The notes below the pieces were generated by a model. That model was not told where the DNA came from, ran no database searches, and worked only from the letters and a program-made list of their open reading frames with translations. Shown in pieces: positions 17 to 16,421 of a DNA stretch of 64,000 bases. This stretch comes from Patescibacteria group bacterium (GTDB taxonomy: Bacteria > Patescibacteriota > WWE3 > UBA101185 > UBA10185). The stretch's first letter is position 1, and each line of letters opens with the position of its first letter. Made by a program: the position numbers and the translations under genes. The DNA is taken from NCBI GenBank assembly GCA_016926555.1, contig JAFGOI010000008.1:91316-155315 (forward strand), written 5' to 3'.

Positions 17-814
17 CTAGTGCCCAAATACCTGGCATCTGCCGCTTGAACACCCATTTGTGCAATTTATACGTATAATTTCGGGTCCGGAAACGCCACA
101 TTGTGCTTCACGCAACTGACTACCACCACAGCGGTCATTTATCCTGCCGGAACCATCAGACCAACTCGCATAAGATCTTATATACTGCTGCCAAACAGTG
201 CCTCCGTCCCCATCCACACAAGTTGGAGGTGGAGTAGGCGTTGGAGTGGGCGTTGGGGTAGGCGTTGGAGTTGGAGTTGGAGTAGGCGTGGAAGTGGATA
301 TGGGTGTCCCAGAAGGGAGCTCTGTAATCATCGAAGTCTGTCTTGGTGTACAATTATCGGGATTCGTAGGATCAGTTGGATCAGTACAATCATACATCTC
401 TCCGGTACCTGAATAAAAAGTTATGGCTATATTTGAATCTAAAGAGGACTGAGTATAAACAACGTATTCATCCGTCCCCCCAACTGAAGGAGCATATATA
501 TAATCCAGAATCCACGAGTCAAGATAAAAACTGAGATTTTGCGCGGAAGGCGAGCCACTACTAGCAGCGGGAAGTTCCCCCTCAGATACTATATAAGCAT
601 CTATTCCTTGACTTAGCTTTTCCAGGTTCGTTACTTTAACACCGTCCTCAGCAACAGAACGGTGCCTGTTTACATTAATAGAACGAACTAAGTATGCCGT
701 CAGTATAGAAATTATGCTTATAACAATCAACAACTCTATAAGTGTAAACCCCTTCTTTCTATATTTTGCAAATAAAACATGCATATTATATTTATTTAAT
801 CTATAGACGTACAA
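17..814 (-). CDS. Type IV pilin-like protein (prepilin N-terminus) with Thr-Pro linker and Cys-rich C-terminal module
   Basis: Prepilin motif KKGFTLIELLIVISIISILTAY with Glu at +5. Linker (TP)x10 followed by a C-terminal module CVDGDGG...C...C...C. Real start probably an internal Met upstream of KKGFTL. Confidence 0.7.
   Translation of the reverse strand: MYVYRLNKYNMHVLFAKYRKKGFTLIELLIVISIISILTAYLVRSINVNRHRSVAEDGVKVTNLEKLSQGIDAYIVSEGELPAASSGSPSAQNLSFYLDSWILDYIYAPSVGGTDEYVVYTQSSLDSNIAITFYSGTGEMYDCTDPTDPTNPDNCTPRQTSMITELPSGTPISTSTPTPTPTPTPTPTPTPTPTPPPTCVDGDGGTVWQQYIRSYASWSDGSGRINDRCGGSQLREAQCGVSGPEIIRINCTNGCSSGRCQVFGH
227..289 (-). repeat. Imperfect 6-bp coding repeat (GGNGTN on the plus strand) encoding the (Thr-Pro)n linker of the pilin
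   Basis: ggagtaggcgttggagtgggcgttggggtaggcgttggagttggagttgg read directly. The TPTPTP run lies at aa ~176-196 of ORF 17..814. Confidence 0.8.
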
Positions 815-1245
815 GTACCCATACTAGTAGGGTCGGTACAATACATAATTTCCCCCGTTCGAGAAAAATAGGTAATTGAACTACTTGCATCTACAGAGGA
901 CTGTATATAAACAACAAATTCATTTGCGCTTCCAACTGAAGGATCGTAAACATATCCATCCAGCCACGTCTGCAAATAAAAATTCAAACTAGAACCCACT
1001 GGAACACCCGCATTAACACCAGGCATTTCCCTTTCAGCTGAAATATATGCTTCTACACCCTGTCCCAACTTTTCCAGATTTACTATCTTTACACCATCTT
1101 CGGCGACAAGCCGATGCCTGTTTATGTTCATAGATCGCACTAAATAAGCTGTTAGAATAGCCACAACACTAACAACTATTAAGAGTTCTATTAATGTAAA
1201 GCCGCATTTACATCTAGTCATAAACATATATCTTAAAATTAACAA
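796..1245 (-). CDS. Type IV pilin-like protein, short paralog of 17..814
   Basis: CGFTLIELLIVVSVVAILTAYLVRSMNINRHRLVAEDGVK aligns almost residue for residue with the N-terminal half of the 17..814 product. Confidence 0.75.
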   Translation of the reverse strand: MLILRYMFMTRCKCGFTLIELLIVVSVVAILTAYLVRSMNINRHRLVAEDGVKIVNLEKLGQGVEAYISAEREMPGVNAGVPVGSSLNFYLQTWLDGYVYDPSVGSANEFVVYIQSSVDASSSITYFSRTGEIMYCTDPTSMGTCTSID

Positions 1246-1256
1246 CCATCAATCAA

Positions 1257-1922
1257 CTAGTACGGAACAGGGCCGCCTATTTCACATGCATTATGAACAC
1301 AACTCCCACTACAATGTATCCTTCTGGTAGCAGGTTCATTACTATTACAATAACTTTCACGAAGGCGGTTAGAGTTTACACATCTATCCGTGTGAATATG
1401 AACATCCGGATTATCCCCGTAATAAACGTACCCAGAAACGTACTGCTCCGTTGAGTAATCTCCGCCATCTGTATCCACACATAGAGGGGGTACGGGTGTT
1501 ATAACACCTTCGGAACAGTCAGGAGAGCTGCATCTGACAACTTTACCTGCTGTAGAAGAATAAACATAATATTCCGAACTCTCAGTTTCTGATCCAACAG
1601 ATATCATGAACTCAGTACCACTAACAAAATATGCAAAACCGTTTGGCCAATCATTTAAATAAATATCAAGATTGTCCGCTGAAGGCTCCCCGGATACTTC
1701 CTGCGGCAGCAAACCCTCAGCAATCCGATAAGCTTGAATTCCCTGAGCTAAATCAATCATAGTTTTTTTATTTACTCCATCCTGAGATATATCTTTCTGC
1801 CTTTGTACATTTACTGTTTTCATAACAACACCGGCCAATATCCCAACTATCGTGATCACTACTAATAGCTCAACTAGCGTAAATCCTTTATAATCTTGAA
1901 TAACCTTTTTTGTCTGTAACAT
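1257..1922 (-). CDS. Type IV pilin-like protein with Cys-rich C-terminal module
   Basis: YKGFTLVELLVVITIVGILAG prepilin motif. C-terminus CVDTDGGDY...C...C...C...C resembles the C-termini of the 17..814 and 4678..5682 products. Confidence 0.75.
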   Translation of the reverse strand: MLQTKKVIQDYKGFTLVELLVVITIVGILAGVVMKTVNVQRQKDISQDGVNKKTMIDLAQGIQAYRIAEGLLPQEVSGEPSADNLDIYLNDWPNGFAYFVSGTEFMISVGSETESSEYYVYSSTAGKVVRCSSPDCSEGVITPVPPLCVDTDGGDYSTEQYVSGYVYYGDNPDVHIHTDRCVNSNRLRESYCNSNEPATRRIHCSGSCVHNACEIGGPVPY

Positions 1923-1926
1923 AAGC

Positions 1927-2493
1927 TTAATTTAGAACAGCGGTACATACAGATAAATTTGGACTTGATAAAGCGTTCGCAATCTGGGCAGTACATTCAA
2001 CCGCACCAACGCCTGTTAAAAATCCAAGAGTAGCACTCGCCTGACCAAATGATTTTCCTAGCAGAATATAATCTGTAGCGGTTCTACCACCGACATTTTC
2101 CAACCTGTAATAATAAAAGTAGCACTGTGAACTTCCTGAACCCTGAAAACTATTAGTACCACAAAGATTGGACGGTAAATCGAACCCAGTTACTGAAAAA
2201 ATACAAAATGAATCTTCAGCACCTCCTTCTGAATCGCAGCCATCTCTACTAGAAGCACCTTGTATCAATGCTAAAATATCATCCCCATAGGGTGCCTCTC
2301 CATAAGCAGATATATGCGCTTCAATGGACAAAGCCATCTTGTCAACTGCGGTAAAAATATTGGAATCTCGTGCTCGATTTCTTACTCCCTGAACATCAAT
2401 AACTCTATAAGTAATGGCCGCTAATATAGCCAAAACACTTATAGCAATAAGAAGTTCAATCAGAGTAAAGGATTTGGCAGTTTTATTAGGCAT
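1927..2493 (-). CDS. Pilin-like protein with atypical -1 residue (Ser instead of Gly)
   Basis: TAKSFTLIELLIAISVLAILAA has a hydrophobic helix with Glu at +5, but the residue before Phe is Ser rather than Gly. Confidence 0.55.
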   Translation of the reverse strand: MPNKTAKSFTLIELLIAISVLAILAAITYRVIDVQGVRNRARDSNIFTAVDKMALSIEAHISAYGEAPYGDDILALIQGASSRDGCDSEGGAEDSFCIFSVTGFDLPSNLCGTNSFQGSGSSQCYFYYYRLENVGGRTATDYILLGKSFGQASATLGFLTGVGAVECTAQIANALSSPNLSVCTAVLN

Positions 2494-2534
2494 ATATCTA
2501 TATAAATCTTAATTTAGTACAGTTTTGGTGTCAA

Positions 2535-4568
2535 TTATCTCACTATGATATCTTTATTAACTTTTATAATAGTTGTCTTTTCATTCTGAAAAAATACATT
2601 TCCCATAGCGAGAAGTTTGTCCATTTGCATAGAACCATCCGAATAAATGTCTTCTTCTATCTCTCCGACAATAATAAAATCTACATTATACTTACGTAAT
2701 ATCATCTTCGTTTTATTTACATCGTCATCCAAATATACAGATCGTACATCTCTTCTTCTAACATCAACTTCACCATAAGATCCCCGCCACGTCCATTCAT
2801 GAACAGGCCAGCCGACTACCGACGGCCAACCCAATAAAGCACTAAATAGATTATTATCTTCATAACTGTCACCATCCGCTTCAACTATTATTTTCATTTT
2901 CTCTCCACGGTTTTGCATGTCCCTATACTTTTTTAAAAAAGCGTAAGCCTCATAATCATATGGATATTTGCTTTCAAACCAATGCAATCCCTCGTTAATC
3001 CCCTTAAACTCCAAAGACCAACCCTTTGTAACCTTGAAAACAACATAGGGATAATACAACTGAATGGCAAACATGCATATAAATACAGACCCAATTAATA
3101 ATCTATTCACACTTCCTTTCAGCTTTGTTAATACTGCAGCCATAAACGTTCCCGAACAGATACTGAGCCATAACCATACTTGAAATGTGAACTTAAAAAC
3201 GGTATTTGCTCTATAATATTCCCCATCAATTAGGATATCTTTAACAAAAAATAGAATAGAGCAGAATACAAACGACCCCCAGTGCAAAAGCCACTGATTT
3301 AGAGACGTGGGCGTTTTAACGACTCCCAAACCGGCCACTGCACTTTTGTAATAATAACTCCAAATCCTGGAAACCATGACCGCCCCAATTGGTATATAGG
3401 TAAGCACAATAAAAGGTCTCCATATTTTATACACGTTTATGATCCCATCCTGAAACCTAACACGGGTGAAAACAGCTTTCTTTATTTCATACCCATATTT
3501 ATACATAAATAGTATGGAAAATAGTATTCCAAGGGACACCGTATCCCAAGAGTTAGTCATAAAGACTACACCGAATAAGAAACTCAGAAGATACATTTTC
3601 TCGCTTTTGAACGACAAACCAGACTTATTATCAATAAAAATCACATAAAGCAACGCGAAAACTACAACGCTCACAAAAGCCCCCCAAACATGCGCATGTA
3701 AGTCAGACACAAAAAAACCATATACGGGCATCTCCATGATAGTCCCACTCACATACCTTGTAGCCTCCGGATACCAAAAAGAAGGTTTAATTGAAATAAA
3801 GCCCAGGATATACATCAACTTTCCAACCAAATATGTCAATACGTAAATATTTCCTGAGAGAGAATAAAATAGAAACGATGACAAACCCGCTACTGCTACA
3901 ATTCCTCTTCCTTTTTTTAACTGATAATTTAAGTAGATCTCCTTCCCAAGTTGAAATACACTGACACTTAACATACTAAACAGCCAACATACTAAGACAA
4001 AAAACCCCTGTAATAGAGGCACATTAGAGAATTTCAAAATGACATGCCCAATAAAATGGCCAAAATAATAATAATTCCATGATTCTCCTGAAAACCATAC
4101 ATCAGGAAGGGGTAGAGAAGTAGCATTTTCCAGAGTTTGTAGAACACCATAATCGAAAATTCGTTCAATACTGTGTACTTCAGCATTAAACCCGCGTACC
4201 ACGTACCAAAAAAGCATTAACAAAACAATAAAACTTTGGGTCCAGAATATTATCTTTAAACTAAAATTGGTTCTTAAGAACTCGGTCTTTAGTTCAATGG
4301 CCAAATTCACAAGAATCCAGACAATAACACAAAGAAAAAACCACACATCGCCCAATCCAATAAACGTACCAATAATAAAATAAAAATAAGACAAACATAT
4401 CCAACCAAGTATGTGGGCAATTACATATCCTTTGTCATTTAATCTTTTAAAAAAGAGGGATGTAAAAGGCCAACTGACTAAACCTATAAACGTATTGGCC
4501 AGAATCAAAGGCAAAAAATATCTTATCACTTCATCCACTGCAATATCCAGCATGGCAGAATTATACAA
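2535..4568 (-). CDS. Large polytopic membrane protein (~13 predicted TM segments plus ~190-aa C-terminal soluble domain); GT-C-like architecture; function unknown
   Basis: 677 aa. Repeated hydrophobic segments run through aa ~1-480, then a hydrophilic C-terminal domain. It is embedded between pilin genes. No signature motif recognised with confidence. Confidence 0.45.
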   Translation of the reverse strand: MYNSAMLDIAVDEVIRYFLPLILANTFIGLVSWPFTSLFFKRLNDKGYVIAHILGWICLSYFYFIIGTFIGLGDVWFFLCVIVWILVNLAIELKTEFLRTNFSLKIIFWTQSFIVLLMLFWYVVRGFNAEVHSIERIFDYGVLQTLENATSLPLPDVWFSGESWNYYYFGHFIGHVILKFSNVPLLQGFFVLVCWLFSMLSVSVFQLGKEIYLNYQLKKGRGIVAVAGLSSFLFYSLSGNIYVLTYLVGKLMYILGFISIKPSFWYPEATRYVSGTIMEMPVYGFFVSDLHAHVWGAFVSVVVFALLYVIFIDNKSGLSFKSEKMYLLSFLFGVVFMTNSWDTVSLGILFSILFMYKYGYEIKKAVFTRVRFQDGIINVYKIWRPFIVLTYIPIGAVMVSRIWSYYYKSAVAGLGVVKTPTSLNQWLLHWGSFVFCSILFFVKDILIDGEYYRANTVFKFTFQVWLWLSICSGTFMAAVLTKLKGSVNRLLIGSVFICMFAIQLYYPYVVFKVTKGWSLEFKGINEGLHWFESKYPYDYEAYAFLKKYRDMQNRGEKMKIIVEADGDSYEDNNLFSALLGWPSVVGWPVHEWTWRGSYGEVDVRRRDVRSVYLDDDVNKTKMILRKYNVDFIIVGEIEEDIYSDGSMQMDKLLAMGNVFFQNEKTTIIKVNKDIIVR

Positions 4569-4677
4569 TGAAACTCCAACAGCTTACGCAGGTGGTTTCA
4601 AGTTAGGAACTTATGAAAATTGAAGGAGATAGACCTGGGGATCAGACACAAAAGCCGTATAAATCACCCTATTCTCA

Positions 4678-5682
4678 CTACTGCGGAGGCCCAAGGTACC
4701 TATAATGAAAGCAAGCGTATCCATTACGATCTGATTTACAAACATACGGCCATTCACACTCCACTTCACTGGAACCTTTCAAGCCATTATTTTGGCAGTA
4801 GTACTCTACCAAAACATTATTATCACAGTAATCACAAGACTCGCCGGCCGTATCTGTAACACATCCAGGTGTATAGATATCATAACCAGCATCTGTATCC
4901 GTACAAGCTTCAGGCGGGAGAGTTGGGGTTGGTGATGTAAGTAACTCTCTAACGCCACACCTATTATCTAAACATACTACCTCCCTCGGTGGACAGCACC
5001 TATCCATACACCCTGCGGGTACCGAACATTCTACCTTGTCATACCACGCATCTACATACCTAACATTAACAACATCCTCATAATCAAATCCGCCGCACCC
5101 GCTGCACTTGCATGCACATCCTACCGGTTCACATTCTTCAGAACTTTCGCAATATCTCCACCTTTCCTCCTCATCATCGGGGGTTGGAGTAGGTGTTGGC
5201 GAGGGATGTATAACATCTTCTCCTTCCTCATTTTCACAGTCAAACGTAGTAACATCACACGTATCTAAAACACACTGATACGTATCCTGCCACGCAGAGG
5301 TATGTTTGTAACATCCATCCGTAGAATCTTCTAAACTCACCACAAGCCCATAATCGGCGCCATCAGAATTATAAGTATATACTGCACCCTCAGGTTCCCC
5401 ATCGGGCCAATCAGTGATAAAATAAGTTCTAAATTCAGAGGATATATCCGCGATATCACTCGTTGGCGGATATTCTCCTTTGGTTGAATAATAGGATTCC
5501 AAAGCACTTGCTATTTGATTTACATTATTCTCTCTAACTGCGTTTTCGGCTTTTTCTTGAGTGCCACCTATATTTAACAGCCCCATCAAAATGATTCCCA
5601 GAATAGTGATGATTACAATAACCACTAACAGCTCTATTAACGTAAATCCTTTATTTATTTTCCCAAAAACTATCTTTTTCAT
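4678..5682 (-). CDS. Type IV pilin-like protein with PTPTPTP linkers and long Cys-rich C-terminal region
   Basis: NKGFTLIELLVVIVIITILGIIL. Then SPTPTPTPDDEEE, followed by many Cys including a CTDTDAGYD...C...C...C module similar to the 1257..1922 C-terminus. Confidence 0.7.
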   Translation of the reverse strand: MKKIVFGKINKGFTLIELLVVIVIITILGIILMGLLNIGGTQEKAENAVRENNVNQIASALESYYSTKGEYPPTSDIADISSEFRTYFITDWPDGEPEGAVYTYNSDGADYGLVVSLEDSTDGCYKHTSAWQDTYQCVLDTCDVTTFDCENEEGEDVIHPSPTPTPTPDDEEERWRYCESSEECEPVGCACKCSGCGGFDYEDVVNVRYVDAWYDKVECSVPAGCMDRCCPPREVVCLDNRCGVRELLTSPTPTLPPEACTDTDAGYDIYTPGCVTDTAGESCDYCDNNVLVEYYCQNNGLKGSSEVECEWPYVCKSDRNGYACFHYRYLGPPQ

Positions 5683-5687
5683 TCGTA

Positions 5688-6116
5688 CTATTCAATTATA
5701 CAATTTGTGCCGACTTGCGCAAGATCCATTACAGTGGCATCACTAAAATTATATACACATTGAAATTCGCACAGAGCACTACCATCAAGAGTAGGGATTG
5801 CCCCGCTGATAGTTATAGTTGCATCCGCAGTGGCTGCGGATTCAGTAAGCGTAAAGATACTACCCTCCGGAGGATTAGGTGGGTAGGTCACGTTAATATC
5901 ATCCCAAGAGTTACATCTTCTCGCGTCCACCTCACTCGCGCCACACGCTTTCAATGCGTAACACATCGTTTCAGTCATGGATCGCACAACTGCTTCATTG
6001 GCGCGTTGACTCTGCCTATTTGGATCTATAAGCGATACCAAAATACTAGCTAATATACCTATCACAGTAATAACTACTAAAATCTCCACAAGTGTAAAAC
6101 CGTTTTTTCTAATCAT
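5688..6116 (-). CDS. Type IV pilin-like protein
   Basis: RKNGFTLVEILVVITVIGILASIL prepilin motif. 142 aa. Confidence 0.7.
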   Translation of the reverse strand: MIRKNGFTLVEILVVITVIGILASILVSLIDPNRQSQRANEAVVRSMTETMCYALKACGASEVDARRCNSWDDINVTYPPNPPEGSIFTLTESAATADATITISGAIPTLDGSALCEFQCVYNFSDATVMDLAQVGTNCIIE

Positions 6117-6181: not shown

Positions 6182-6859
6182 CTAATTAATATCCACTCTG
6201 GAACAGTTTGCATCGCCTGCGTAAGGATCCGTATCTACTGTCATATCTGTCGGATCAATTCCCGTCGCACCATTGCATTCGTACATACCAAATTCCGAAT
6301 GAATTACATACCACGTATTATTATCTACAACCGCGTCCGGATTTAATTCCCAGGCTTTCCCAATAATCGCAAAACGACCACCTCTCAATGGACCGGATAC
6401 AACCTTGAAGTGACATTGAGCTGTCCCATCTGCGGCCATACTATAGACATGATTAGTTTCGTTTCCAACATACGCCACACATGTGTCAGGCAACAATACA
6501 CTCGGAAAATTAAAATCCACGTCAATCCCTATAGTAGTATCGATTGGGTTATCTGTTGACAGTGGGCTATTTGTGTTTGAGTTCCCAACAACCTCCAGGT
6601 TATTAACCTCCAATAACAATTCATCTTCACATACCATTCTTCCGGTCGCAGAGCGAGCAGAATTTAGTCCATAACCCACTTTTTGCAAGGCAGATCTAAT
6701 TGCAGCATTTCTTGATCTATTCTGTTGTCTTATAGGATCAATTACTGCGATTAGAATACCGGCCAATATACCAATAATTATGATAACAATGAGTAACTCT
6801 ATAAGTGTGAAACCGCTGTCAAGATCTAATCTTGAAGTCTTTCTTTTAACTTCTTTCAT
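6182..6859 (-). CDS. Type IV pilin-like protein
   Basis: DSGFTLIELLIVIIIIGILAGILIAVIDPIRQQNRSRNAAIRSA. Paralog of the 7007..7681 product. Confidence 0.75.
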   Translation of the reverse strand: MKEVKRKTSRLDLDSGFTLIELLIVIIIIGILAGILIAVIDPIRQQNRSRNAAIRSALQKVGYGLNSARSATGRMVCEDELLLEVNNLEVVGNSNTNSPLSTDNPIDTTIGIDVDFNFPSVLLPDTCVAYVGNETNHVYSMAADGTAQCHFKVVSGPLRGGRFAIIGKAWELNPDAVVDNNTWYVIHSEFGMYECNGATGIDPTDMTVDTDPYAGDANCSRVDIN

Positions 6860-7006: not shown

Positions 7007-7681
7007 TCAAAGGTCATCGAATCTGTCACAATTGTACCCATTCATTTCTATAGCATAAGAAAAATCCTCAATACTCATATCCGAGGGATCAAGGCCAGAA
7101 GGGGCAGAAGAGCATTCCCACAACCCATCGGAAGAATCAAACACATAATATAAACCATTAGTTAGATCCATATCTGGTGTCAACTCCCATGACTTGGCGA
7201 TAATTCTAAATTTGCCATCTCTTATAGGGCCGGAATTATATTGAAACACACACTGAGTAGTTCCTTCCATCGCGTCATCCCAATTAGTTTCGTTACAGGA
7301 CGATGGAAGTGCTACACCGGGAAAGTCAAATAACACCTCAGTCTCAACCGTTGTATTACCCAAACCGCCGTTTTCCGGATTTGAGCGATAAAGGTCAATT
7401 GTATCGGGGTTTATCACAACATTCTCAGTCTCTGTTTCTATATCGTTTTCATACGGAAGCCGGCCAGTTGAAGAACGCGCAGTATTTATACTGTATGCAA
7501 CTTTTTGAATCGCAGATCTGATAGCCGCATTTCTAGCTCGGTTCTGTTGTCTAATAGGATCTATAACTGCAATTAGAACTGCAGCCAGAATACCTATGAT
7601 TATAATCACTATAAGAAGTTCAATAAGCGTAAATCCACGATCAATAGAATATTTATCTTTCAACCAGTATTTAGACAACAT
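7007..7681 (-). CDS. Type IV pilin-like protein (start moved to internal Met before DRGFTLIELL)
   Basis: MLSKYWLKDKYSIDRGFTLIELLIVIIIIGILAAVLIAVIDPIRQQNRARNAAIRSA. The ORF track extends to 7762, but that region overlaps the upstream gene end and the promoter-like motif. Confidence 0.7.
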   Translation of the reverse strand: MLSKYWLKDKYSIDRGFTLIELLIVIIIIGILAAVLIAVIDPIRQQNRARNAAIRSAIQKVAYSINTARSSTGRLPYENDIETETENVVINPDTIDLYRSNPENGGLGNTTVETEVLFDFPGVALPSSCNETNWDDAMEGTTQCVFQYNSGPIRDGKFRIIAKSWELTPDMDLTNGLYYVFDSSDGLWECSSAPSGLDPSDMSIEDFSYAIEMNGYNCDRFDDL

Positions 7682-7714
7682 AGTTAGGGCAGGCGACCTT
7701 AATTGCCTATATTG

Positions 7715-7747
7715 AGTATGAATTGCACTAGTTATAAAGTCAAGAAA
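7715..7747 (-). promoter_or_regulatory. Conserved promoter-like element, copy 2 (TTGACT variant)
   Basis: agtatgaa-N16-gtcaagaaa with the same 24-nt offset, immediately upstream of the pilin start at 7681. Confidence 0.5.
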
Positions 7748-7761
7748 TAACACCAAGCGCA

Positions 7762-8667
7762 TTAGTCCGCTATGAAAAAGCTATAATCCATAACATCTGG
7801 CATATACGGACGGGATTTGTATACCGACATAATCTTAACCACTCTTTGTTCTGACTCCTCTACTAAATTACCTACCGCAGTTATTTTATAACCCTGCTCT
7901 GGAAGATCACCCACAGAAGGATACACACCAAAATTGGCGCTATTATACATAGACCTTATCCTCAAACCGAATTTTCTGGACGGATTAATCTCCGAGAGAT
8001 CAATTTCGGCACACCAATTAAAACCATCTTTCGCTTCCGCGTTAGCTTGTACAAATCCCCGCATCGACTCAAGTGGGTCATAAAACGCAATAGGGTAGTA
8101 ACCGCCTTTACTTACCATCCCAGCGTCATCATACGCTATATAATATAATGCTGTCTTATCATTATCCCAGCATACATTTATTTTATCGTCTGTATATACA
8201 CCGTTTGAGTCATATAGGGATATTTCCTTTAGCTGACCTGATGTAAGCGCAAATCTGTAATGATCCCCTGAACTTTTACTACTGGAGTTGTATTGAAACT
8301 TCTCTACGGTTACAACAGCTTCAGCTGAAATCTTATCGTAGCCAAGTGGCGGATAATCTACTATACATCCTTGAATCCCTTCTTCATATCTCAAGTTAAT
8401 CAACTCACAGTTTGTTTTATATCTATCGGGATCGGTCACGTCAGAAAGAGCCTCTAGTCTGCAATCACCAGCATTCAAATATCTTTCTATACCTCCTTCT
8501 ACAACAGCTGACAATCTCGCAGCCGTATCAGTGCGAGTCACTCTAGCTGATACAGCCAAACTTCGCGTCGCTATAGATAATCCAATAGTTAGAGCTATAA
8601 CAACAACTACAACTACTCCTAAAAGTACTTGCCCAGATTTATTACGCTTTTTATTTGCAATGTTCAC
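7762..8667 (-). CDS. PilX-like minor pilin/pilus assembly protein (cassette copy 1)
   Basis: N-terminus KSGQVLLGVVVVVVIALTIGLSIATRSLAVSARVTRTDTAARLSAVVEGGIERYL fits the PilX_N-type pattern (QxG, hydrophobic helix, AE-G). Paralog of the 11749..12657 product. Confidence 0.5.
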   Translation of the reverse strand: MNIANKKRNKSGQVLLGVVVVVVIALTIGLSIATRSLAVSARVTRTDTAARLSAVVEGGIERYLNAGDCRLEALSDVTDPDRYKTNCELINLRYEEGIQGCIVDYPPLGYDKISAEAVVTVEKFQYNSSSKSSGDHYRFALTSGQLKEISLYDSNGVYTDDKINVCWDNDKTALYYIAYDDAGMVSKGGYYPIAFYDPLESMRGFVQANAEAKDGFNWCAEIDLSEINPSRKFGLRIRSMYNSANFGVYPSVGDLPEQGYKITAVGNLVEESEQRVVKIMSVYKSRPYMPDVMDYSFFIAD

Positions 8668-11094
8668 TTAAAACGCCCCCTCCGTATCAAATTGAAGATC
8701 AAAAACCCGCAACCCCGTTAAGTGAACATTACAATAATCTGAATCTCTTTCCATCTTAGTAAAGTTTGGTATAAATGACGGATTGTATTTAACTGATTCT
8801 GCAGGATACATGTCATTTTCAACTCCTAAATCCCTAGTAAATAATATTTTCTTTGCAACTAACGGTCCTGTTAATAAGACTGGATAATCCGGCGGGGTAG
8901 GGTAGTTCTCTATCCTTATTTCCCCACTTGTGAGAAACCCTGCTTCCACATTTGAATCAGCTTGCAAATAATACCCATCTTGTGATCCATAAGACGTATA
9001 GCCTACATTAGGGTATACATGTACATTTGTGTCAGTAACAATAAACAAACATCCCGAATTCGTGCTGGGAATACGCATAATGTCGTCACGCACCTCTAAA
9101 TCCGATCCGTTGCCCTCAACATATATAACAGCATCTCCATTGACCAAATTATACTTTACAGGCCCTAAGTTAAAATCATCATTAAAATCCTGACTATTCA
9201 TTTTATGTACACCGCCAGCAATTACCTCACTAATATCAGATATCGCTCTTACATAGGCATGAGAAGGAGCAGAGAATGAAAACCTCGAATTATACCAATT
9301 CGAAATCATACCTGTATTTTCCGCGTAACCGCAATTATCAGCATTAGAAGGACACGCGCTGGTATCCGTATAATTTTCGGCATATGAATGAGCAAACGCA
9401 TCGCTAATACCATTGCCAGGATCCGAAAATTGCATTAATGAGCCATAAAATCCACCTCCCAACTCCTGCCCAGAAGAAACAACCTGTATATCGATCTCTT
9501 TAGAATACACATCACCATCTATAGAGGTATACCAAGGAGATACCTGTTCTTTAAATAGATCAACTAAAACTGGCACTCTCCCACACGAAATCGGAGTTAC
9601 ATTAATCTGCGTGGAAACACCTCCGCCAATAAACTCGTCTTCAACGCAATTAATTCGAAATAATGAGGTGCCCGGCGAATAAAATGTACTTACATTAAAT
9701 GTGTTAGAAGATGAGATTATATTATCAAATCCAACATGCCCGTTTTCAACACCATCCGAATCATCAGATGACCCATCAACTATAGTTCTAGAAGCACCCC
9801 CATCCGCATCCTGAACAGTAATAGAAACACCTCTGGCCTCTCCATTATCACTTGCACAATCCCCATAGTCGGATTCATTAACATAAAACTCTAGCATATA
9901 GTCGTAAATAACATTTATAAGACGTTCGTGCACACAAACTGTCGTATCATATCCATCTGATATATCCACTCTCACGTCACATAATTCACTATTATCTGGT
10001 TGAGAATGCACGGGGGGTAACCATACTACTGAAGGATCCGATCCTAAAACTACATTGCCATTCGGAAAACTTCCGTTGCATCCCAATGATGGATCACTAC
10101 AAGATTCACAGCTAACACTCCATGTATAAGTCATATTCCCAACACTACTCACATTCATACCATCGGCGTTGTTAATAGATAATACTATATTGCCGTCACA
10201 CATATTTACATCAATCTTATATCGGGAATCCCCCGGTTCCCACCAAGCGGTTTCATCACCGACTACAAAATCACCACAACTAGGCGGACAATTGATTATC
10301 ACAGGAACAGATAAACATAAATCAGTGGTAGTTACACCACTATCCTCTAAATATACCGCAGTTCCGATTTCACACACTTTCCCACAAGCACTCCCTTCCG
10401 GAGCAGTCCAAAAAAACGGATTAGAATTTCCACTTATACTCCCACACGAGGCTGTATGCTCATATTTAAAGGAGGGTGGGGGAGTAGGACCTTCTATATT
10501 TGAATATAACTCATATGTCCGCCCTGCAGCAGCTCTAAAAGTTCCTGAAGAATCCGCATTGGGAAATACAATATTTGAGCAATCGTAGACATCTATCTCA
10601 AACAAATCGGCGGTATCCTTTTTACCATCTGATGAGGAAAATGAAATCTGTCGGGTTCCGAAACCAATCGAATTATAAATCGCGCCGGTACAGTCAGCAC
10701 CAGAAAATCCTCCCTTATCAGAATCATCACCCCAATAGCATGATAAAGTGTCGCCATCTGGGTCCGAAGAAGAAGAATTTAAACGAACTGAAGAGTTTGA
10801 CATTATCTTTGCGGGACCGGAGTCTATTGAGCTCGCCGGAGCTTTATTTGGCTTAGTACAACTACCCTCGCAACTACAGACTTTTAAATCCCAGGTACTT
10901 TTAACGCAACTCCAATCTTTATTTCCGCCACTTCCATCACAATCATCATTATGACACACCCAACAACTTCCATCGTCAAAACAACCCCACTGATTGTACT
11001 CAAAACATTCACACTCAACCGCATAAGACAACCCAGAAACCACTAATAGAAGTGAAATAATCACTATCAATGTGGGCAGCTTTTTAAATTTCAC
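8668..11094 (-). CDS. Large secreted Cys-rich protein, candidate pilus-associated adhesin (PilY1-like position; cassette copy 1)
   Basis: 808 aa. Signal peptide MKFKKLPTLIVIISLLLVVSGLSYA, Cys-rich N-terminus, DPDGD/DSDG acidic motifs and conserved blocks (PPVHSQPDNSELCDV; TIVDGSSDDSDGVENG; FSD...DAFAH) shared with the 12660..15221 product. Flanked by PilX-like and small membrane protein genes. Confidence 0.5.
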   Translation of the reverse strand: MKFKKLPTLIVIISLLLVVSGLSYAVECECFEYNQWGCFDDGSCWVCHNDDCDGSGGNKDWSCVKSTWDLKVCSCEGSCTKPNKAPASSIDSGPAKIMSNSSVRLNSSSSDPDGDTLSCYWGDDSDKGGFSGADCTGAIYNSIGFGTRQISFSSSDGKKDTADLFEIDVYDCSNIVFPNADSSGTFRAAAGRTYELYSNIEGPTPPPSFKYEHTASCGSISGNSNPFFWTAPEGSACGKVCEIGTAVYLEDSGVTTTDLCLSVPVIINCPPSCGDFVVGDETAWWEPGDSRYKIDVNMCDGNIVLSINNADGMNVSSVGNMTYTWSVSCESCSDPSLGCNGSFPNGNVVLGSDPSVVWLPPVHSQPDNSELCDVRVDISDGYDTTVCVHERLINVIYDYMLEFYVNESDYGDCASDNGEARGVSITVQDADGGASRTIVDGSSDDSDGVENGHVGFDNIISSSNTFNVSTFYSPGTSLFRINCVEDEFIGGGVSTQINVTPISCGRVPVLVDLFKEQVSPWYTSIDGDVYSKEIDIQVVSSGQELGGGFYGSLMQFSDPGNGISDAFAHSYAENYTDTSACPSNADNCGYAENTGMISNWYNSRFSFSAPSHAYVRAISDISEVIAGGVHKMNSQDFNDDFNLGPVKYNLVNGDAVIYVEGNGSDLEVRDDIMRIPSTNSGCLFIVTDTNVHVYPNVGYTSYGSQDGYYLQADSNVEAGFLTSGEIRIENYPTPPDYPVLLTGPLVAKKILFTRDLGVENDMYPAESVKYNPSFIPNFTKMERDSDYCNVHLTGLRVFDLQFDTEGAF

Positions 11095-11682
11095 TTACAA
11101 AGGTTCTCCATAACAAGTTAGCTTTACTAATCCATTATCAGTCTTATCAACCGATATTTCAATATAATCCCCCGGATCAAGTATTTCTAGTATTTGGGGC
11201 GCACTAAAAAATTCCAGAAGATTAAAGGAATTTAAAGCAGTACCATTTTCCTTTTGTAATCGTCTCACCTCTAAAAACTCAAAATCAAACGATCTTATAA
11301 AAACATACGAGCCATCTTTTAAAATTACCTTCCCGCTACTTACATCTATCTCTTGTATATATCCATCATAAATTTTTTTATCGGAACTGCGCAACTTCCC
11401 GGGGCCAGTAAAAGGTTTGTATTCAGACAAGCACTCATCCAAATAGTATTTTGAGGGTCTAACTAACCATCCATCCTTCTTTTCTTCGGGCTCAAATTCA
11501 AATGAGTCCTCGTCTAAAGCAGAGACACTTTCGTGCACAGAATCGGGATAAATGCCTTCCACTAGTTCCAGCTCCTCTTCATCTTCTTTTAACAAATCCG
11601 GAAGGTATATATAGACCAAAGTGCCTAGAACAAAAAAACAAGAAATAACCATAAAAAAACCGGGCAGTGATTTTGTGTCCAT
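11095..11682 (-). CDS. Small N-terminally membrane-anchored protein (cassette copy 1), function unknown
   Basis: 195 aa. Single N-terminal hydrophobic segment FFMVISCFFVLGTLVYIYL. Positional and weak sequence paralog of the 15311..15907 product. Confidence 0.5.
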   Translation of the reverse strand: MDTKSLPGFFMVISCFFVLGTLVYIYLPDLLKEDEEELELVEGIYPDSVHESVSALDEDSFEFEPEEKKDGWLVRPSKYYLDECLSEYKPFTGPGKLRSSDKKIYDGYIQEIDVSSGKVILKDGSYVFIRSFDFEFLEVRRLQKENGTALNSFNLLEFFSAPQILEILDPGDYIEISVDKTDNGLVKLTCYGEPL

Positions 11683-11693
11683 ATATTGTACTC

Positions 11694-11726
11694 AGTATGA
11701 ATTCCTAAAAAATCGCTGTCAAGAAA
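11694..11726 (-). promoter_or_regulatory. Conserved promoter-like element, copy 3
   Basis: agtatgaa-N16-gtcaagaaaaa. Gene-sense TTTTTCTTGACA-N17-TTCATACT, 11 nt upstream of the ATG at 11682. Confidence 0.55.
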
Positions 11727-11748
11727 AATTTCCGCACGACAAGGATAG

Positions 11749-12657
11749 CTAGAAGGAACCATTCGTGAATATCGCGTAATCAAAAACATCGGGTAAATAT
11801 GGGTACGATCTATATACTGTAACCACTTTAACTGTTTTTTCCTCTGATTCCTCACTAAGCTCCCCCACAGACACTATTCTGTAACCCTGGGAAGTAAGGG
11901 ATCGCGAAGGACTTGGATACAACCCAAAAGTCGCATGATCATATAATGCCCTTAGTCTTAAACCGTAATACTGATTATTTTGTAGTTCCGCCAACGGGAT
12001 TGTCGCACACCATGTATATCCATCCCTGGAAACACTGCTTGCCTGTTCAAAACCCCGCATGGAGTCTAGCGGGTCAACAAACGCCCGCGGGTAGAATCCA
12101 CCCCTTGTTATATTACCTCTAGTGTCATAAGCAACATAATAAATAGCTGTGTTATCGTTATCCCAGCAAACATCAATCTCATTATTCCCATATGTATGTG
12201 TGCCATCGGTCAAAGGCAGTTCTTTCATCTGACCCGCATTCAACACAAACCTATAATGATTTTCATCATCAACGGCGGAATTATAGTCAAATTCCTCAAC
12301 AGTTACTATAGCTCTTGTTGCTATCTTATCATCTCCCTGAGGAGGAAAGTTCACAACACAACCTTCAATTCCCTCTACATATTCCATATTAGCATCATCG
12401 CAATATTGTTCATAACGATCCGCATCTGTAGTATCGGCAAAAGACCTTAGGCGACAGTCGTTTATAACCAGAAATCTTTCGGCGCCGCCTTCAACTGCCG
12501 CTATAAGTCTGGAAGCAGTGTCCGTACGAGATACCCTCGAAGACATGGATAATGTCCTTGTGGATATAGAAACTCCAACCGCCAATGCCACAGTAACCGC
12601 CACAACTACAGAAAGCAGTACTTGGCCTTTTTGTTTTTTAATAAACCTAATCATCAC
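11749..12657 (-). CDS. PilX-like protein (cassette copy 2)
   Basis: QKGQVLLSVVVAVTVALAVGVSISTRTLSMSSRVSRTDTASRLIAAVEGGAERF. Also shares RGFEQAS...DGYTWCATIPLAEL with the 7762..8667 product. Confidence 0.5.
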   Translation of the reverse strand: MMIRFIKKQKGQVLLSVVVAVTVALAVGVSISTRTLSMSSRVSRTDTASRLIAAVEGGAERFLVINDCRLRSFADTTDADRYEQYCDDANMEYVEGIEGCVVNFPPQGDDKIATRAIVTVEEFDYNSAVDDENHYRFVLNAGQMKELPLTDGTHTYGNNEIDVCWDNDNTAIYYVAYDTRGNITRGGFYPRAFVDPLDSMRGFEQASSVSRDGYTWCATIPLAELQNNQYYGLRLRALYDHATFGLYPSPSRSLTSQGYRIVSVGELSEESEEKTVKVVTVYRSYPYLPDVFDYAIFTNGSF

Positions 12658-12659
12658 AT

Positions 12660-15221
12660 TTAGTCTCCGTATGTAAATTGAACATCAAACATCCCAAGAC
12701 CAGTAAAATCTATATCACAGTAAGTTGGGTCTCTCTCTTCTCTTGTTAGATAGTAGAGAAAATCAGTACTATACTTTGTCGCCACCGCAGGATACATATC
12801 ATTGTCTAACACAAGATTACGATTGAAAGTAATGTTCTCAGCGACTAGCGGTCCTTGGAGAAGAAGAGGTATATCCGGCGGAGTCGCGGCACCTTCTATG
12901 TTAATAGTTCCGCTTGTAATTATACCTGCCTCAATATTAGGTCTCGCTTGAAGATTATACCCGCCAACACCGTAGGTAGCGTACCCAACCGATGCGTCAA
13001 TATTGACATCCGCGTCAGTTATAATCAACAAGTCATCGCTGTAAGTACTACTGTTCATATATCTGTGAATTGGCAAAGAAATATCAAGAGTAGAACCGCC
13101 ACTAGGTACGTACAAAATGCCAGCTTCTCTACGTCTGACTATAGTCGGCACATATCCAAGAGAACCCCATCTTGTAAACTCGGAGTTGAATCTTGAGGCA
13201 GTCATCGTGTTCACAACACTCCTATCATCAGACCAATCCCAGTTAACCTCATACAAATAACTCACAGTATTTACTTCAGAATGTGTCGGGGGCTGAAATG
13301 TATATACATTATCAAACCATTCGGATCTCATTGAAGTGTTTTTCGCAAAACCGCAGTGGTCAGCCTCGGGAGAGCACATCGCGGTATCTACAGCATTCTC
13401 ACTAAGAGTATGTGCGAACGCATCGTCAACGTGACTTGAAACATCTGAGAACTGCAATAACGAACCTACAAAACCATCTCCCAACTCCTCACCCGCACAC
13501 ACTACATCAGTATCCAAAGAATTTGCGTACACATCCCCATCAATGGCTATCTCCCATGAATTGAGCTCTTCCTCAAACAACTCAATATCCAAAGGTATAA
13601 CACCACAACCGCTTGGAGTTACACTTATCTGGGCAGACACACCGCCCCCTACAACTTCTCCCGGCACACAATTAAGATGCCATCGCGCACATTCAGGAGA
13701 GTAAAACACATCAACATTAAATGTATGAGATGATGACCGGATAGCGTCAAAAAGAATCTTACCATTTTCTGTTCCATCGGAATCACTCCCAGAACCATCA
13801 ACAATTGTATAAACCCTAGAATTACTAACATCCCTATACGTTATAGAAACACCATCCGCAGTACCTTGGTGATCATCACAATCCTCATATGGTGTCTCAA
13901 ACACATTGAACTCAAGCTGATATGTATATGTAATATTAACAAAATCGGTATAAACTTCTGAGTTGCTTTCAAACCCATCAAAAACCGTAACAACTACATC
14001 GCATTTTTCGGAATTATCAGACTGAGAATGAACAGGAGCCCTCCATAATATCTCTGCATTAGGCATGGTACTGACATTGCCGCTGGGAAAAGTCCCATTA
14101 TCACCCGAGTCACAATATACATTCCACGTATAGACCAGATGCTCGGTATCTCCCGGGTCAGGATCATCAGCTCCATACCCTGGACGGGTCATACTTTGCA
14201 TCGTAAATACCTCGTCGCCATCACAAGCATTAACATCATGTGTAAATATACTAAATGGAAAATAGTTTTGGCCATTAACATACGGCCATCCAAGAACAGG
14301 GAGCCTATTTATTAAAACATCCGCTCGTTGACACCAATTTGTCGTATTATTAACATGCGCCCTTGATCTCACCCTGCATGTTTCACCTCTATGAGTCTCA
14401 TCCGGAGAAGTCCAAACAAACGGACTGACATCCCGGCCACCTATTATCCCGCATGTTGAATCATCCGGCGCTAGGGCATCATTTGTATAAGTAAATGTAG
14501 GCGGATTCGGGGGACCCTCTATTGTTGTGTTGACAATATAGTTGTGCGTTCCAGTTTCGGGGGATTGAGGAACCGCTCTTGGTTTTCCAAGCCAGTCAAA
14601 AGCTTTATAACCTGAAACATCTGAGGTTGGCCAATCAACACTTTCACAATCATAAACATCTATTGTATAGGGACACTCAGCTGTTTTTCCCCCTCGGCTT
14701 TCAGCATGATTTATAATACTCACATTCCCATGATTCTGCGTAGTATGGTTATAAACCGCGGAGTTGCAATCCGCGCCCGTACTAAAATCCCCATTATCCG
14801 GATCATCTCTCCATGTACATGTTACAGTATCACCATCTGAATCTGAGGCAGAAGATGTATACGTAATACCAGATGAATTCGCCATTATATCCTGGACACC
14901 CACCGGAGTAGTACAGGTTGGAGGATGGTTCGTGGGCGGACTTCCTTTACTACAAGGGCAATGGCAATGGCAGGGAGGGTTGGGCGCTGCACATGTTGTT
15001 GGCTCATTAACAAGAATTCCTGTTGAACTACAACACCAACATTCGTCACCAGGGCAATCAGCACCGCAGTCGCAACTATAACATGTCTGACCTTCCCCGG
15101 GGCACGAATCACTTTTACTCATACAACTCGCGGCATATACATCTTCATTTAGACCAATATATAAAGTAGCAAAGAGGGACAAAAACAAAATTTTAAATAC
15201 AAAAGGCAGATTCTTTTTCAT
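12660..15221 (-). CDS. Large secreted Cys-rich protein, candidate adhesin (cassette copy 2)
   Basis: 853 aa. Signal peptide, then Cys/His-rich N-terminus (CHCHCPCS) and blocks shared with the 8668..11094 product across its full length. Confidence 0.5.
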   Translation of the reverse strand: MKKNLPFVFKILFLSLFATLYIGLNEDVYAASCMSKSDSCPGEGQTCYSCDCGADCPGDECWCCSSTGILVNEPTTCAAPNPPCHCHCPCSKGSPPTNHPPTCTTPVGVQDIMANSSGITYTSSASDSDGDTVTCTWRDDPDNGDFSTGADCNSAVYNHTTQNHGNVSIINHAESRGGKTAECPYTIDVYDCESVDWPTSDVSGYKAFDWLGKPRAVPQSPETGTHNYIVNTTIEGPPNPPTFTYTNDALAPDDSTCGIIGGRDVSPFVWTSPDETHRGETCRVRSRAHVNNTTNWCQRADVLINRLPVLGWPYVNGQNYFPFSIFTHDVNACDGDEVFTMQSMTRPGYGADDPDPGDTEHLVYTWNVYCDSGDNGTFPSGNVSTMPNAEILWRAPVHSQSDNSEKCDVVVTVFDGFESNSEVYTDFVNITYTYQLEFNVFETPYEDCDDHQGTADGVSITYRDVSNSRVYTIVDGSGSDSDGTENGKILFDAIRSSSHTFNVDVFYSPECARWHLNCVPGEVVGGGVSAQISVTPSGCGVIPLDIELFEEELNSWEIAIDGDVYANSLDTDVVCAGEELGDGFVGSLLQFSDVSSHVDDAFAHTLSENAVDTAMCSPEADHCGFAKNTSMRSEWFDNVYTFQPPTHSEVNTVSYLYEVNWDWSDDRSVVNTMTASRFNSEFTRWGSLGYVPTIVRRREAGILYVPSGGSTLDISLPIHRYMNSSTYSDDLLIITDADVNIDASVGYATYGVGGYNLQARPNIEAGIITSGTINIEGAATPPDIPLLLQGPLVAENITFNRNLVLDNDMYPAVATKYSTDFLYYLTREERDPTYCDIDFTGLGMFDVQFTYGD

Positions 15222-15243
15222 CTTACTAACACCTTAGCACTTA

Positions 15244-15276
15244 GTATGAATGGCCAACTCTTTACTGTCAAGAAAA
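15244..15276 (-). promoter_or_regulatory. Conserved promoter-like element, copy 4
   Basis: Gene-sense TTTTTTCTTGACAGTAAAGAGTTGGCCATTCATACT, followed by AAGGTG (SD-like) and the ATG at 15221. Confidence 0.55.
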
Positions 15277-15310
15277 AATATTAGGAAAAATTGCACAGCA
15301 CGATTCAAAT

Positions 15311-15907
15311 TTATCTCTCGTCACAATAAACATCCATCCTGACATATCCATCAGAATCGAGCACAAATGTAGCAAAATCGCCGGAATTTATATAGTTTAG
15401 AAAAGCAGGGGATTCCTCCTCCAATTTTAGAGTATACACATTTGTTTCGAGACTTTCAGTTGTTTGAACAAGATAAACCAACAAATCAGCGACAAAGACC
15501 TCCTCACCATTCTTTAGCACAAGTGACCCATTATCTACATTTACCGACTCTATAAAAGAATGCAAACGATCTCCCACCCGTGCATAACCCACTTCCGGCA
15601 TTTCACCCGGTTTATAGTCCGACACACATTTATCTATATCTTCTCCGCTCAACTGATTACCGGACCCATCCCGAGCTGTATAGGAAATATAATCAGAGAA
15701 CGCGGACTTACTCGGATCCGACGACAAATCTCCACTTTGATCTTTATCAATCAGGTCAGATTTTGTGTCTGCAGGAATGTCAGAGGACCCGCTGTCTTTC
15801 AAAACAGGTCTTCTAACATTAACACCTTTTGTGACAAAATAAACTGCAAGTAGAATCACACACAAAACCGAGGCTATAATAACAAAAGGTAGAAACTTTT
15901 TATTCAT
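15311..15907 (-). CDS. Small N-terminally membrane-anchored protein (cassette copy 2); start moved to Met of MNKKFLPFVII
   Basis: The promoter-like copy 5 overlaps the upstream part of the track ORF, so the true start is most likely 15907. Hydrophobic segment FVIIASVLCVILLAVYFV. Confidence 0.5.
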   Translation of the reverse strand: MNKKFLPFVIIASVLCVILLAVYFVTKGVNVRRPVLKDSGSSDIPADTKSDLIDKDQSGDLSSDPSKSAFSDYISYTARDGSGNQLSGEDIDKCVSDYKPGEMPEVGYARVGDRLHSFIESVNVDNGSLVLKNGEEVFVADLLVYLVQTTESLETNVYTLKLEEESPAFLNYINSGDFATFVLDSDGYVRMDVYCDER

Positions 15908-15926
15908 ACACTTATATCTAGCTTTT

Positions 15927-15959
15927 AGTATGAACGGAGTAGTATTTGTTGTCAAGATA
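15927..15959 (-). promoter_or_regulatory. Conserved promoter-like element, copy 5
   Basis: Gene-sense TTATCTTGACAACAAATACTACTCCGTTCATACT, 19 nt upstream of the ATG at 15907. Confidence 0.55.
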
Positions 15960-15978: not shown

Positions 15979-16407
15979 TTAACCGACAAATGATTTTATT
16001 TCGTCCAGAATTTTATCAGGAGTGATCTCGGATTTAATAAGATAACCAGACGCACCCAATTTGAAAGCTTCATCAATAATATGTTCGCTGTTAAGATTGG
16101 TGAGAACAATAACTGGCCCTTTCTTAATATCCTTCGTATCTTTAATCTCTTTTAGAATTCTAATTCCGTCTTTAACAGGCAGGATCACATCAAGTAGCAG
16201 GAGATCCCATACCTCATTTTGAATCATTTCAAGACCAATGTTGCCATCCGAAGCCTGTAGTACTTCGTAACCTGCATCCATCAATATCTCAGCATAAAGT
16301 AAGCGTATATCGTGCTCATCCTCAACTATAAGAATAGTCTTCTTCGGCGGATTAAGTGTCACCATACTAGTTATAATAGTAACACATTTAGTAGGGGAGT
16401 TTGTCAA
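15979..16407 (-). CDS. Single-domain response regulator (CheY-like receiver only)
   Basis: ILIVEDEHDIRLLYAEIL...LLLLDVILP...LTNL...GYLIKS. 142 aa, no output domain. Confidence 0.85.
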   Translation of the reverse strand: MTNSPTKCVTIITSMVTLNPPKKTILIVEDEHDIRLLYAEILMDAGYEVLQASDGNIGLEMIQNEVWDLLLLDVILPVKDGIRILKEIKDTKDIKKGPVIVLTNLNSEHIIDEAFKLGASGYLIKSEITPDKILDEIKSFVG

Positions 16408-16421
16408 TAGTATCTTTTGTA

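Follow-up and report, generated by a model that had tools for sequence, protein, structure and literature searches.

The 64,000-nt stretch of DNA analysed here (hereafter the window) comes from a Patescibacteria group bacterium and corresponds to positions 91,316-155,315 of the forward strand of contig JAFGOI010000008.1 (assembly GCA_016926555.1). Its first 8 kb carry a minus-strand array of prepilin genes, three of which, designated A, B and C, encode type IV prepilins that end in related copies of one small cysteine-rich module. Pilin A (17..784, minus strand, as are all features in this paragraph; 255 residues) is composed of the leader MHVLFAKYRKKG↓FTLIELL (the arrow marks the cleavage site), a pilin domain with a closing Cys-Cys loop, a Ser/Thr/Pro-rich linker (221..313; residues 158-188) and the C-terminal module (35..220; residues 189-250). 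Its paralog A' (796..1221; 141 residues; MBN1162675.1) has neither linker nor module. Pilin B (1257..1922; 221 residues; MBN1162676.1) begins with the leader MLQTKKVIQDYKG↓FTLVELL and proceeds through a pilin domain and the short linker ITPVPPL to its module (1284..1481; residues 148-213). Pilin C (4678..5682; 334 residues; MBN1162679.1) is the most elaborate of the three, with the leader MKKIVFGKINKG↓FTLIELL, a pilin domain, a first Pro/Thr linker (5164..5208), a Cys-rich insert (4951..5163), a second Pro/Thr linker (4906..4938) and, finally, the module (4711..4905; residues 260-324). A', B and C are already present in NCBI on a 170 kb contig under the labels 'type II secretion system protein' or 'prepilin-type ... 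domain-containing protein', and each of them forms a singleton cluster at 90% identity among ~15 billion proteins. An independent Logan assembly (contig L001) encodes A and B proteins identical to those of the window.

The original prediction had read the open reading frames (ORFs) 17..814, 1257..1922 and 4678..5682 as starting like ordinary prepilins, and this is well borne out. PF07963 (N_methyl) matches A, A', B and C with E values of 1e-8 to 4e-7, TIGR02532 scores above its curated cut-off in all four, and the three ORFs in question carry G↓FTL(I/V)E at the processing site. The individual cleavage motifs are KKG↓FTLIELL in A, CG↓FTLIELL in A', YKG↓FTLVELL in B and NKG↓FTLIELL in C; all four proteins thus display Gly-1, Phe+1 and Glu+5 followed by a hydrophobic helix, i.e. 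the type IV prepilin signature, and the cognate prepilin peptidase and assembly machinery are encoded in the window and on L001. Two starts differ from those of the listed ORFs. Pilin A most likely begins at the ATG at 784, not at the TTG at 814, and the gene call on L001 uses the same ATG; A', listed as 796..1245, likely begins at the ATG at 1221, in agreement with MBN1162675.1.

Where does the pilin end and the appended part begin? The pilin domains are closed by a C-terminal Cys-Cys loop ahead of the linker, and A', the short module-less paralog to which attention had been drawn from the outset, shares 56% identity with A across the pilin domain and terminates right after this loop, exactly where the linker of A begins. 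The pilin part is therefore complete before the linker. In pairwise comparison with A, the identity of the pilin domain falls to 37% in B and to ~21% in C. In an AlphaFold2 model of full-length B, a helix at residues 16-69 (54 residues) and a four-strand sheet at residues 96-131 are predicted with moderate confidence, and the module that comes after them stands apart as a unit of high confidence.

Translated in all six frames, the window contains the motif C-x-[DN]-x-[DN]-x-[GA] at just three places, namely once in A, once in B and once in C, close to the C-terminus in every case. The three C-termini align in register over C1, D3, D5, G7, a Tyr, two Asp, D-x-C, L-x-E-x-x-C and further Cys residues; the modules of A and B, which have D-R-C, L-R-E and R-I-x-C in common, show 37% identity, and that of C less. 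To separate homology from mere Cys richness, a hidden Markov model (HMM) was built from 113 units of other proteins, with all window sequences excluded, and each module was compared with 300 shuffles in which the Cys positions were kept fixed. The modules scored 47.3 bits (B), 42.7 bits (A) and 39.9 bits (C), as opposed to 19.7, 21.0 and 12.2 bits for the best shuffle, respectively. Because these scores exceed the Cys-fixed shuffles by at least 20 bits, the likeness of the three modules represents homology and not Cys composition. The idea that the three C-termini are one related module is thereby upheld, with its spacing conserved (40-47 bits versus at most 21 for the shuffles), although the 'four to six Cys' initially ascribed to it has to be amended to six in A, six in B and eight in C. 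The last three Cys of the A module are arranged as C-x3-C-x4-C; the module of C belongs to an eight-Cys subtype in which the first hairpin gains a further Cys pair, an addition seen in 50 of 980 family units, and the tail is longer and of the 'GY-C' type.

Modelled from a 116-sequence alignment, the module of B is predicted by AlphaFold2 to form a compact, all-beta small domain (predicted local distance difference test (pLDDT) 89.3, predicted template modelling score 0.73). When this model was compared with the Protein Data Bank (PDB) by Foldseek, the best match had an E value of 1.4, and PDB profile searches with two family alignments (one of them A3) returned nothing meaningful. Neither Pfam-A nor NCBIfam, scanned on the pilins and on 10 typical members, holds a model of the module, and neither the modules of A, B and C nor these 10 members matched TSP3_bac, EF-hand or any other Pfam entry.

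The module is nevertheless far from being confined to this locus. An exhaustive profile search over 1.84 billion cluster representatives, counting clusters at 50% identity, revealed a family of 1358 clusters at E<=1e-3, 327 of them at E<=1e-10. Protein-level details of the family rest on the best 150 of the 1358 matches, a set that is biased towards multi-repeat proteins. Nearly all of these 150 carry several copies, up to 21 units per protein; a hydrophobic, signal-like N-terminus is present in 133 of the 146 members examined, and a Kazal-like motif, 'PVCG.DG.TY.N.C', occurs in 18 among the matches listed. Members that bear a name at all are 'hypothetical' or 'uncharacterised', such as MFH0862488.1 of Ca. 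Altiarchaeota and VVC04524.1 of Ca. Bilamarchaeum. The domains that accompany the module in other proteins (CARDB, Kre9/KNH Ig-like, ConA-like lectin (Laminin_G_3), CBM96, beta-helix, dockerin, TSP3 and DUF5684) are, with the exception of the last, suggestive of extracellular adhesion or carbohydrate contexts. Since the family spans 1358 clusters and the matches inspected are secreted multi-repeat proteins, the module is not pilin-specific; it is best described as a generic extracellular repeat that has been grafted onto pilins. Its ubiquity on non-pilin proteins had been named beforehand as an outcome that would speak against the original prediction, and a distribution of this kind is precisely what was found; what has to be given up is the notion of a pilin-specific domain, while the fusion to the C-termini of the three pilins itself stands.

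From these proteins, 989 units were extracted, with a median length of 63 residues and exactly six Cys in 77% of them. The family consensus reads C-t-D-S-D-G-G-x-x-Y-x-x-x-G ... D-x-C ... L-x-E-Y-Y-C ... C-P-x-G-C-x-x-G-A-C. The six Cys (profile positions 1, 29, 40, 52, 56 and 61) are kept in 95-100% of the units, closely followed or even matched by D3 (92%), D5 (98%), G7 (95%), G14 (95%), D27 (99%), E37 (98%) and G59 (92%). The modules of A, B and C retain all six family Cys together with D3, D5, D27, E37 and G7; the only departures at these positions are Ser for G14 in A and Asn for G59 in B. The six invariant Cys suggest three disulfides, and the invariant acidic quartet D3/D5/D27/E37 suggests a metal site, perhaps for Ca2+. 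Co-loss of Cys residues among family units turned out to reflect mostly alignment-edge effects, and no disulfide pairing was derived from it.

Which organisms use this repeat? A genome scan covering one genome per GTDB species, carried out with the most canonical form of the motif, yielded 309 confirmed stretches, and the best 79 loci were inspected. About 62 of these are archaeal, mainly from DPANN lineages (Woese-, Pace-, Aenigm-, Nano-, Nanohalo-, Micr- and Iainarchaeota) and Altiarchaeota, with some metagenome-assembled genomes (MAGs) of Methanosarcinales; bacteria account for about 17, of which at least 10 belong to the candidate phyla radiation (CPR; Saccharibacteria, Buchananbacteria and Paceibacterota). 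The module was not found in the viruses of IMG/VR. Word-indexed protein searches, performed with the module alignment and with B minus its helix, gave essentially no matches, because the family is too divergent for shared 5-mers, and a literature search on the motif and the family retrieved no paper describing the repeat.

The fusion to pilins, by contrast with the module, was not encountered in other bacteria. A bacterial prepilin N-terminus, sought by regular expression and HMM, was absent from the ~230 other module proteins inspected (the 150 matches listed plus the 79 loci); among the best 150 of the 1358 matches a prepilin leader is carried only by the window's own B and C, and no prepilin-like ORF lies within 4 kb of the module ORFs at the best 79 of the 309 loci. 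Both samples favour multi-repeat or consensus-like members, and single-module pilins of other organisms would rank below the 150 matches listed. The proposed search for the module at pilin C-termini elsewhere thus produced no bacterial counterpart within this sample and a single possible archaeal analogue. In a MAG of a Candidatus Woesearchaeota archaeon, an ORF (L073:972-2264, plus strand) starts with an archaeal class-III-like RKGQSAFEFL motif and a hydrophobic stretch, has one module near its C-terminus, ~320 residues after the N-terminal motif, and continues into a further Cys-rich tail. Pfam gave no match on this ORF and its class-III-like assignment is made at the motif level; it may represent an archaeal counterpart of the pilin-module fusion. 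Closer to home, metagenome scans for A/B-like modules (CVD[TG]DGG[DT][YV]) and for pilin domains related to that of A/A' (VAEDGVK[VI] and [DN]E[YF]VVY[TI]Q) found none, from which we conclude that the lineage is poorly sampled.

The linkers deserve separate consideration. That two of the three pilins are joined to the module by Pro/Thr linkers was noted early and is confirmed: the linker of A, SGTPISTS(TP)11PPT, contains a tract of eleven TP pairs and is encoded by an imperfect 6/12/24-nt repeat, and that of C is a pair of the PT type, PSPTPTPTP and TSPTPTLPP, whereas B has merely ITPVPPL. O-glycosylated pilins are well known from Neisseria (PilE/PglL) and Pseudomonas aeruginosa (TfpO/TfpW), and we hypothesize that the TP linkers could likewise be O-glycosylated; the sole contextual hint is a gene for a DUF2298/Chlor_Arch_YYY protein inside the pilin cluster. 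Between its two linkers C contains a segment of 71 residues (174-244) with 12 Cys, beginning RWRYCESSEECEPVGCACKCSGCGG, so that the additional Cys-rich material ascribed to this pilin is indeed there. We considered that it might be a second copy of the module and rejected this, as it does not match the module HMM; nor did it meaningfully match Pfam, any of the proteins and loci retrieved, other parts of the window or the PDB, where only a spurious TALE-repeat similarity appeared (best E 0.0013).

How did three members of one array come to share the module? The modules of A and B score 101 against each other and 104-109 against the best foreign units, and both have the common C-x3-C-x4-C tail. 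Against A or B, the module of C reaches no more than 38, as compared with 110-116 against foreign units, and it falls into a recurring eight-Cys/long-tail subtype represented, for example, by one unit of the family protein P0005. The simplest history, as read from these pairwise scores and not from a tree, would involve one graft in the ancestor of A, A' and B, followed by loss in A' (or gain in A), and a separate graft in C. The modules also differ from the pilin parts in GC content (0.42-0.50 versus 0.38-0.40); amino-acid composition can account for this difference, which does not count as a sign of recent transfer.

The remainder of the locus supplies what a type IV pilus would need. Within the array, a module-free prepilin gene lies at 1927..2493 (minus strand) and further prepilin genes at 5688..6116, 6182..6859 and 7007..7762. 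The array extends past the start of the window on L001, where more pilins and then PilM/N/O are encountered; L001:4109-10491 encodes at least five further prepilin-like proteins, a third PilX-like protein, PilM, PilN and PilO. This brings the locus to a total of ~16 pilin-like proteins, only three of which carry the module. The remaining machinery is encoded on the minus strand further into the window and comprises the prepilin peptidase PilD (24631..25590; A24_N_bact and Peptidase_A24), PilC (26495..27697; T2SSF), a PilT-like ATPase (27694..28761) and PilB (28758..30521), the domains recorded for the latter two being T2SSE and MshEN. A plain pilin of 165 residues (25897..26394, minus strand), which adjoins pilC, is a candidate for the major pilin.

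Several neighbouring genes are worth recording in their own right. The DUF2298/Chlor_Arch_YYY gene (2535..4568, minus strand) sits in the middle of the pilin array and encodes a polytopic membrane protein of 677 residues with ~10 or more hydrophobic segments, matches to PF10060 (8.7e-56) and TIGR03662 (2e-83), and an NYYYFGH motif; it is an unconfirmed candidate for a pilin-modifying enzyme, for example a glycosyltransferase, and a literature search on the function of DUF2298/TIGR03662 found nothing relevant. The region 7762..15955 (minus strand) looks like a duplicated gene triplet. Its first member is PilX-like, with a 'KKxKGQVLL + hydrophobic' N-terminus (7762..8667 and 11749..12657); the second is a large secreted protein with a very Cys-rich N-terminal region, the C-termini being similar (8668..11094, 808 residues; 12660..15221, 853 residues and 33 Cys); and the third is a protein of 195 or 214 residues (11095..11682 and 15311..15955). 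None of the triplet proteins has a match in Pfam or NCBIfam; they may be tip-associated or PilY1-like factors. Two single-domain response regulators (15979..16811, minus strand) lie directly beside the cluster of pilins and large proteins, and a GAF-domain histidine kinase (23182..24612, plus strand) adjoins pilD; together they might regulate the pilus genes.

What might a single copy of a secreted repeat accomplish at the end of a pilin? We consider it reasonably probable that A, B and C belong to a complete type IV pilus (PilBTCD/MNO) as bimodular pilins, trimodular in the case of C and probably minor ones, which display the module most likely for attachment. According to this scheme, the class III signal peptide would be cut by the PilD encoded in the window and the hydrophobic alpha-1 helix would pack in the filament core, while a small beta-sheet domain closed by the Cys-Cys loop would complete the pilin. 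The Pro/Thr-rich linker would come next and, last of all, one all-beta module of ~62 residues with its six invariant Cys and four near-invariant acidic residues, recruited, as it appears, from the large family that DPANN archaea and CPR bacteria carry as tandem repeats on secreted or surface proteins. Assembly by PilB, PilC and PilMNO would then make the module project on its linker from the surface or tip of the filament, where, as the terminal domain, it would most likely be the binding head that attaches the cell to a host or substrate, and retraction by PilT would subsequently draw the cell in. A, B and C are probably minor pilins of low abundance, as suggested by the plain 165-residue pilin beside pilC, a better candidate for the major subunit, and by the restriction of the module to three of the ~16 pilin-like genes.

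A number of observations weigh against this proposal and should be taken together. With regard to the pilin, its part of the B model is of moderate quality only (pLDDT 45-72), Foldseek of the full-length B model against the PDB gave nothing significant, the sole pilin match being 4bhr_B (TMt 0.59, E 2), and orthologous pilins were not found elsewhere by protein searches or metagenome scans. With regard to the module, it has no relative in Pfam, NCBIfam or the PDB, which leaves no basis for inferring a ligand; in anoxic habitats, disulfides outside the cell cannot be taken for granted; and some family members belong to organisms that are not known to be episymbionts (MAGs of Methanosarcinales, Cloacimonadota and Phycisphaerae). 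Finally, the module is a tandem repeat in most family members, which would fit a structural stalk equally well.

This last point leads to the most serious alternative, namely that the module is a passive structural part, a rigid, disulfide-braced decoration that thickens or stabilises the pilus or shields it from proteases, phage or shear. Long tandem arrays of up to 21 copies, as seen in nearly all other members, are typical of stalks and spacers, and no ligand-binding signature was recognised in library and fold searches. On the pilins, however, a single terminal copy sits on a flexible linker with nothing distal to it that a spacer could hold out, the near-invariance of four acidic residues is more in keeping with a conserved site than with a mere scaffold, and the module is present in just 3 of the ~16 pilin-like genes of the cluster. 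We therefore regard a passive role as unlikely; it is because the module is both terminal and single that a binding role appears more plausible than that of a spacer.

Alternatively, A, B and C could be pseudopilin-like subunits serving DNA uptake or secretion, with the module capturing a substrate, for example. CPR type IV pili have often been proposed to take up DNA, two of the three proteins are labelled by NCBI as components of type II secretion, and their best sub-threshold likeness in NCBIfam is to the N-termini of GspG, GspH and ComGC. The scores for GspG, GspH and ComG are, however, far below the curated cut-offs and span only the common N-terminal helix, whereas the PilT-like retraction ATPase and PilM/N/O indicate a pilus of the T4aP-like kind. 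Moreover, Patescibacteria are generally held to be devoid of an outer membrane that a type II secretion system would have to cross, and the module, acidic and Cys-rich, does not resemble a DNA-binding domain. Taken together, these arguments make a pseudopilin role very unlikely. As to the suspicion that the C-termini are alike only by Cys composition or convergence, or that the fused ORFs are artefacts of assembly or annotation, it may be prompted by short, Cys-rich sequences of low mutual identity, but is hardly credible given the margin by which an independent family HMM separates them from Cys-fixed shuffles, the thirteen Cys and non-Cys positions conserved in register, the unbroken reading frames, and the recovery of the same A and B ORFs from both the NCBI MAG contig and the Logan assembly.

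Returning to modular pilins displaying the module for attachment, a bolder version of this proposal can be imagined, in which the six-Cys module is a Ca2+-dependent 'attachment cassette' for host surfaces that is exchanged between DPANN and CPR episymbionts and was put on retractile type IV pili by at least two independent grafts, one of the A/B type and one of the C type. We offer it as a speculation that is doubtful at present; if true, it would provide a sequence-defined handle on host recognition by ultrasmall episymbionts. The wider interest of the locus derives from the fact that Patescibacteria rely on attachment to other cells and that, among the organelles that could mediate it in the few members in cultivation, the type IV pilus has the best support, while the binding parts of their pilins have stayed largely obscure because the globular parts are without database signatures. 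A concrete, foldable module (pLDDT 89) has now been identified on three pilins of one cluster. A domain model for the family would annotate thousands of 'hypothetical' surface proteins and enable a systematic search for pilin fusions; defining the domain family may, in fact, be a more valuable by-product than the pilin fusion itself.

How do these pilins compare with systems already described? More than 1,200 modular pilins in 264 architectures have been catalogued, some of them from CPR phyla, with the prediction that many more exist whose modules are devoid of a signature (Raynaud 2021; PMC8179133). In their architecture, A, B and C fit this concept well, as does the proposed display of an appended domain on the fibre (PMC8179133; PMC11623550): each has a complete pilin, a linker and a domain that is not specific to type IV pili and that stands apart as a high-confidence unit in the model of B. 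The closest parallels are the adhesive modular pilins PilB (vWA module) and PilC (ConA-like lectin module) of Streptococcus sanguinis (PMC8179133), where, too, a short linker connects a complete N-terminal pilin with a C-terminal domain that is independent of it and is also found on non-pilins. In contrast to them, the module of the window is only ~62 residues long, Cys-rich and without an InterPro, Pfam or NCBIfam signature; furthermore, it is shared by three paralogous pilins of one cluster, one of which, C, adds a second, unrelated Cys-rich module. Within the Patescibacteria, the minor pilins PilX1 and PilX2 of the saccharibacterium TM7x possess large lectin-like or beta-propeller C-terminal domains, are needed for host binding and are predicted to be O-glycosylated (PMC11623550). 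A, B and C resemble them in being type IV pilins of Patescibacteria with accessory C-terminal domains, and differ in the type and size of these domains and in coming from an unrelated, poorly sampled lineage; homologs were not detected.

As far as the module itself is concerned, A, B and C share with the DPANN/CPR repeat the six Cys and their spacing, the acidic quartet and the tail, which is of the common kind in A and B and of the long kind in C. The repeat found elsewhere, however, occurs in 2 to 21 copies behind Sec or lipoprotein-like signals. The acidic D-x-D-G-G start, the further invariant Asp/Glu residues and the character of an extracellular Cys-containing repeat also call to mind Ca2+-binding DxDxDG loops and thrombospondin type 3 repeats, and TSP3_bac repeats accompany the module in some family proteins; unlike those, the module has only two Asp in its loop motif and does not form a full DxDxDGxxDxxD loop. 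The grafting of modules onto pilins is already established, and the pilins described here extend, rather than overturn, our current understanding of it.

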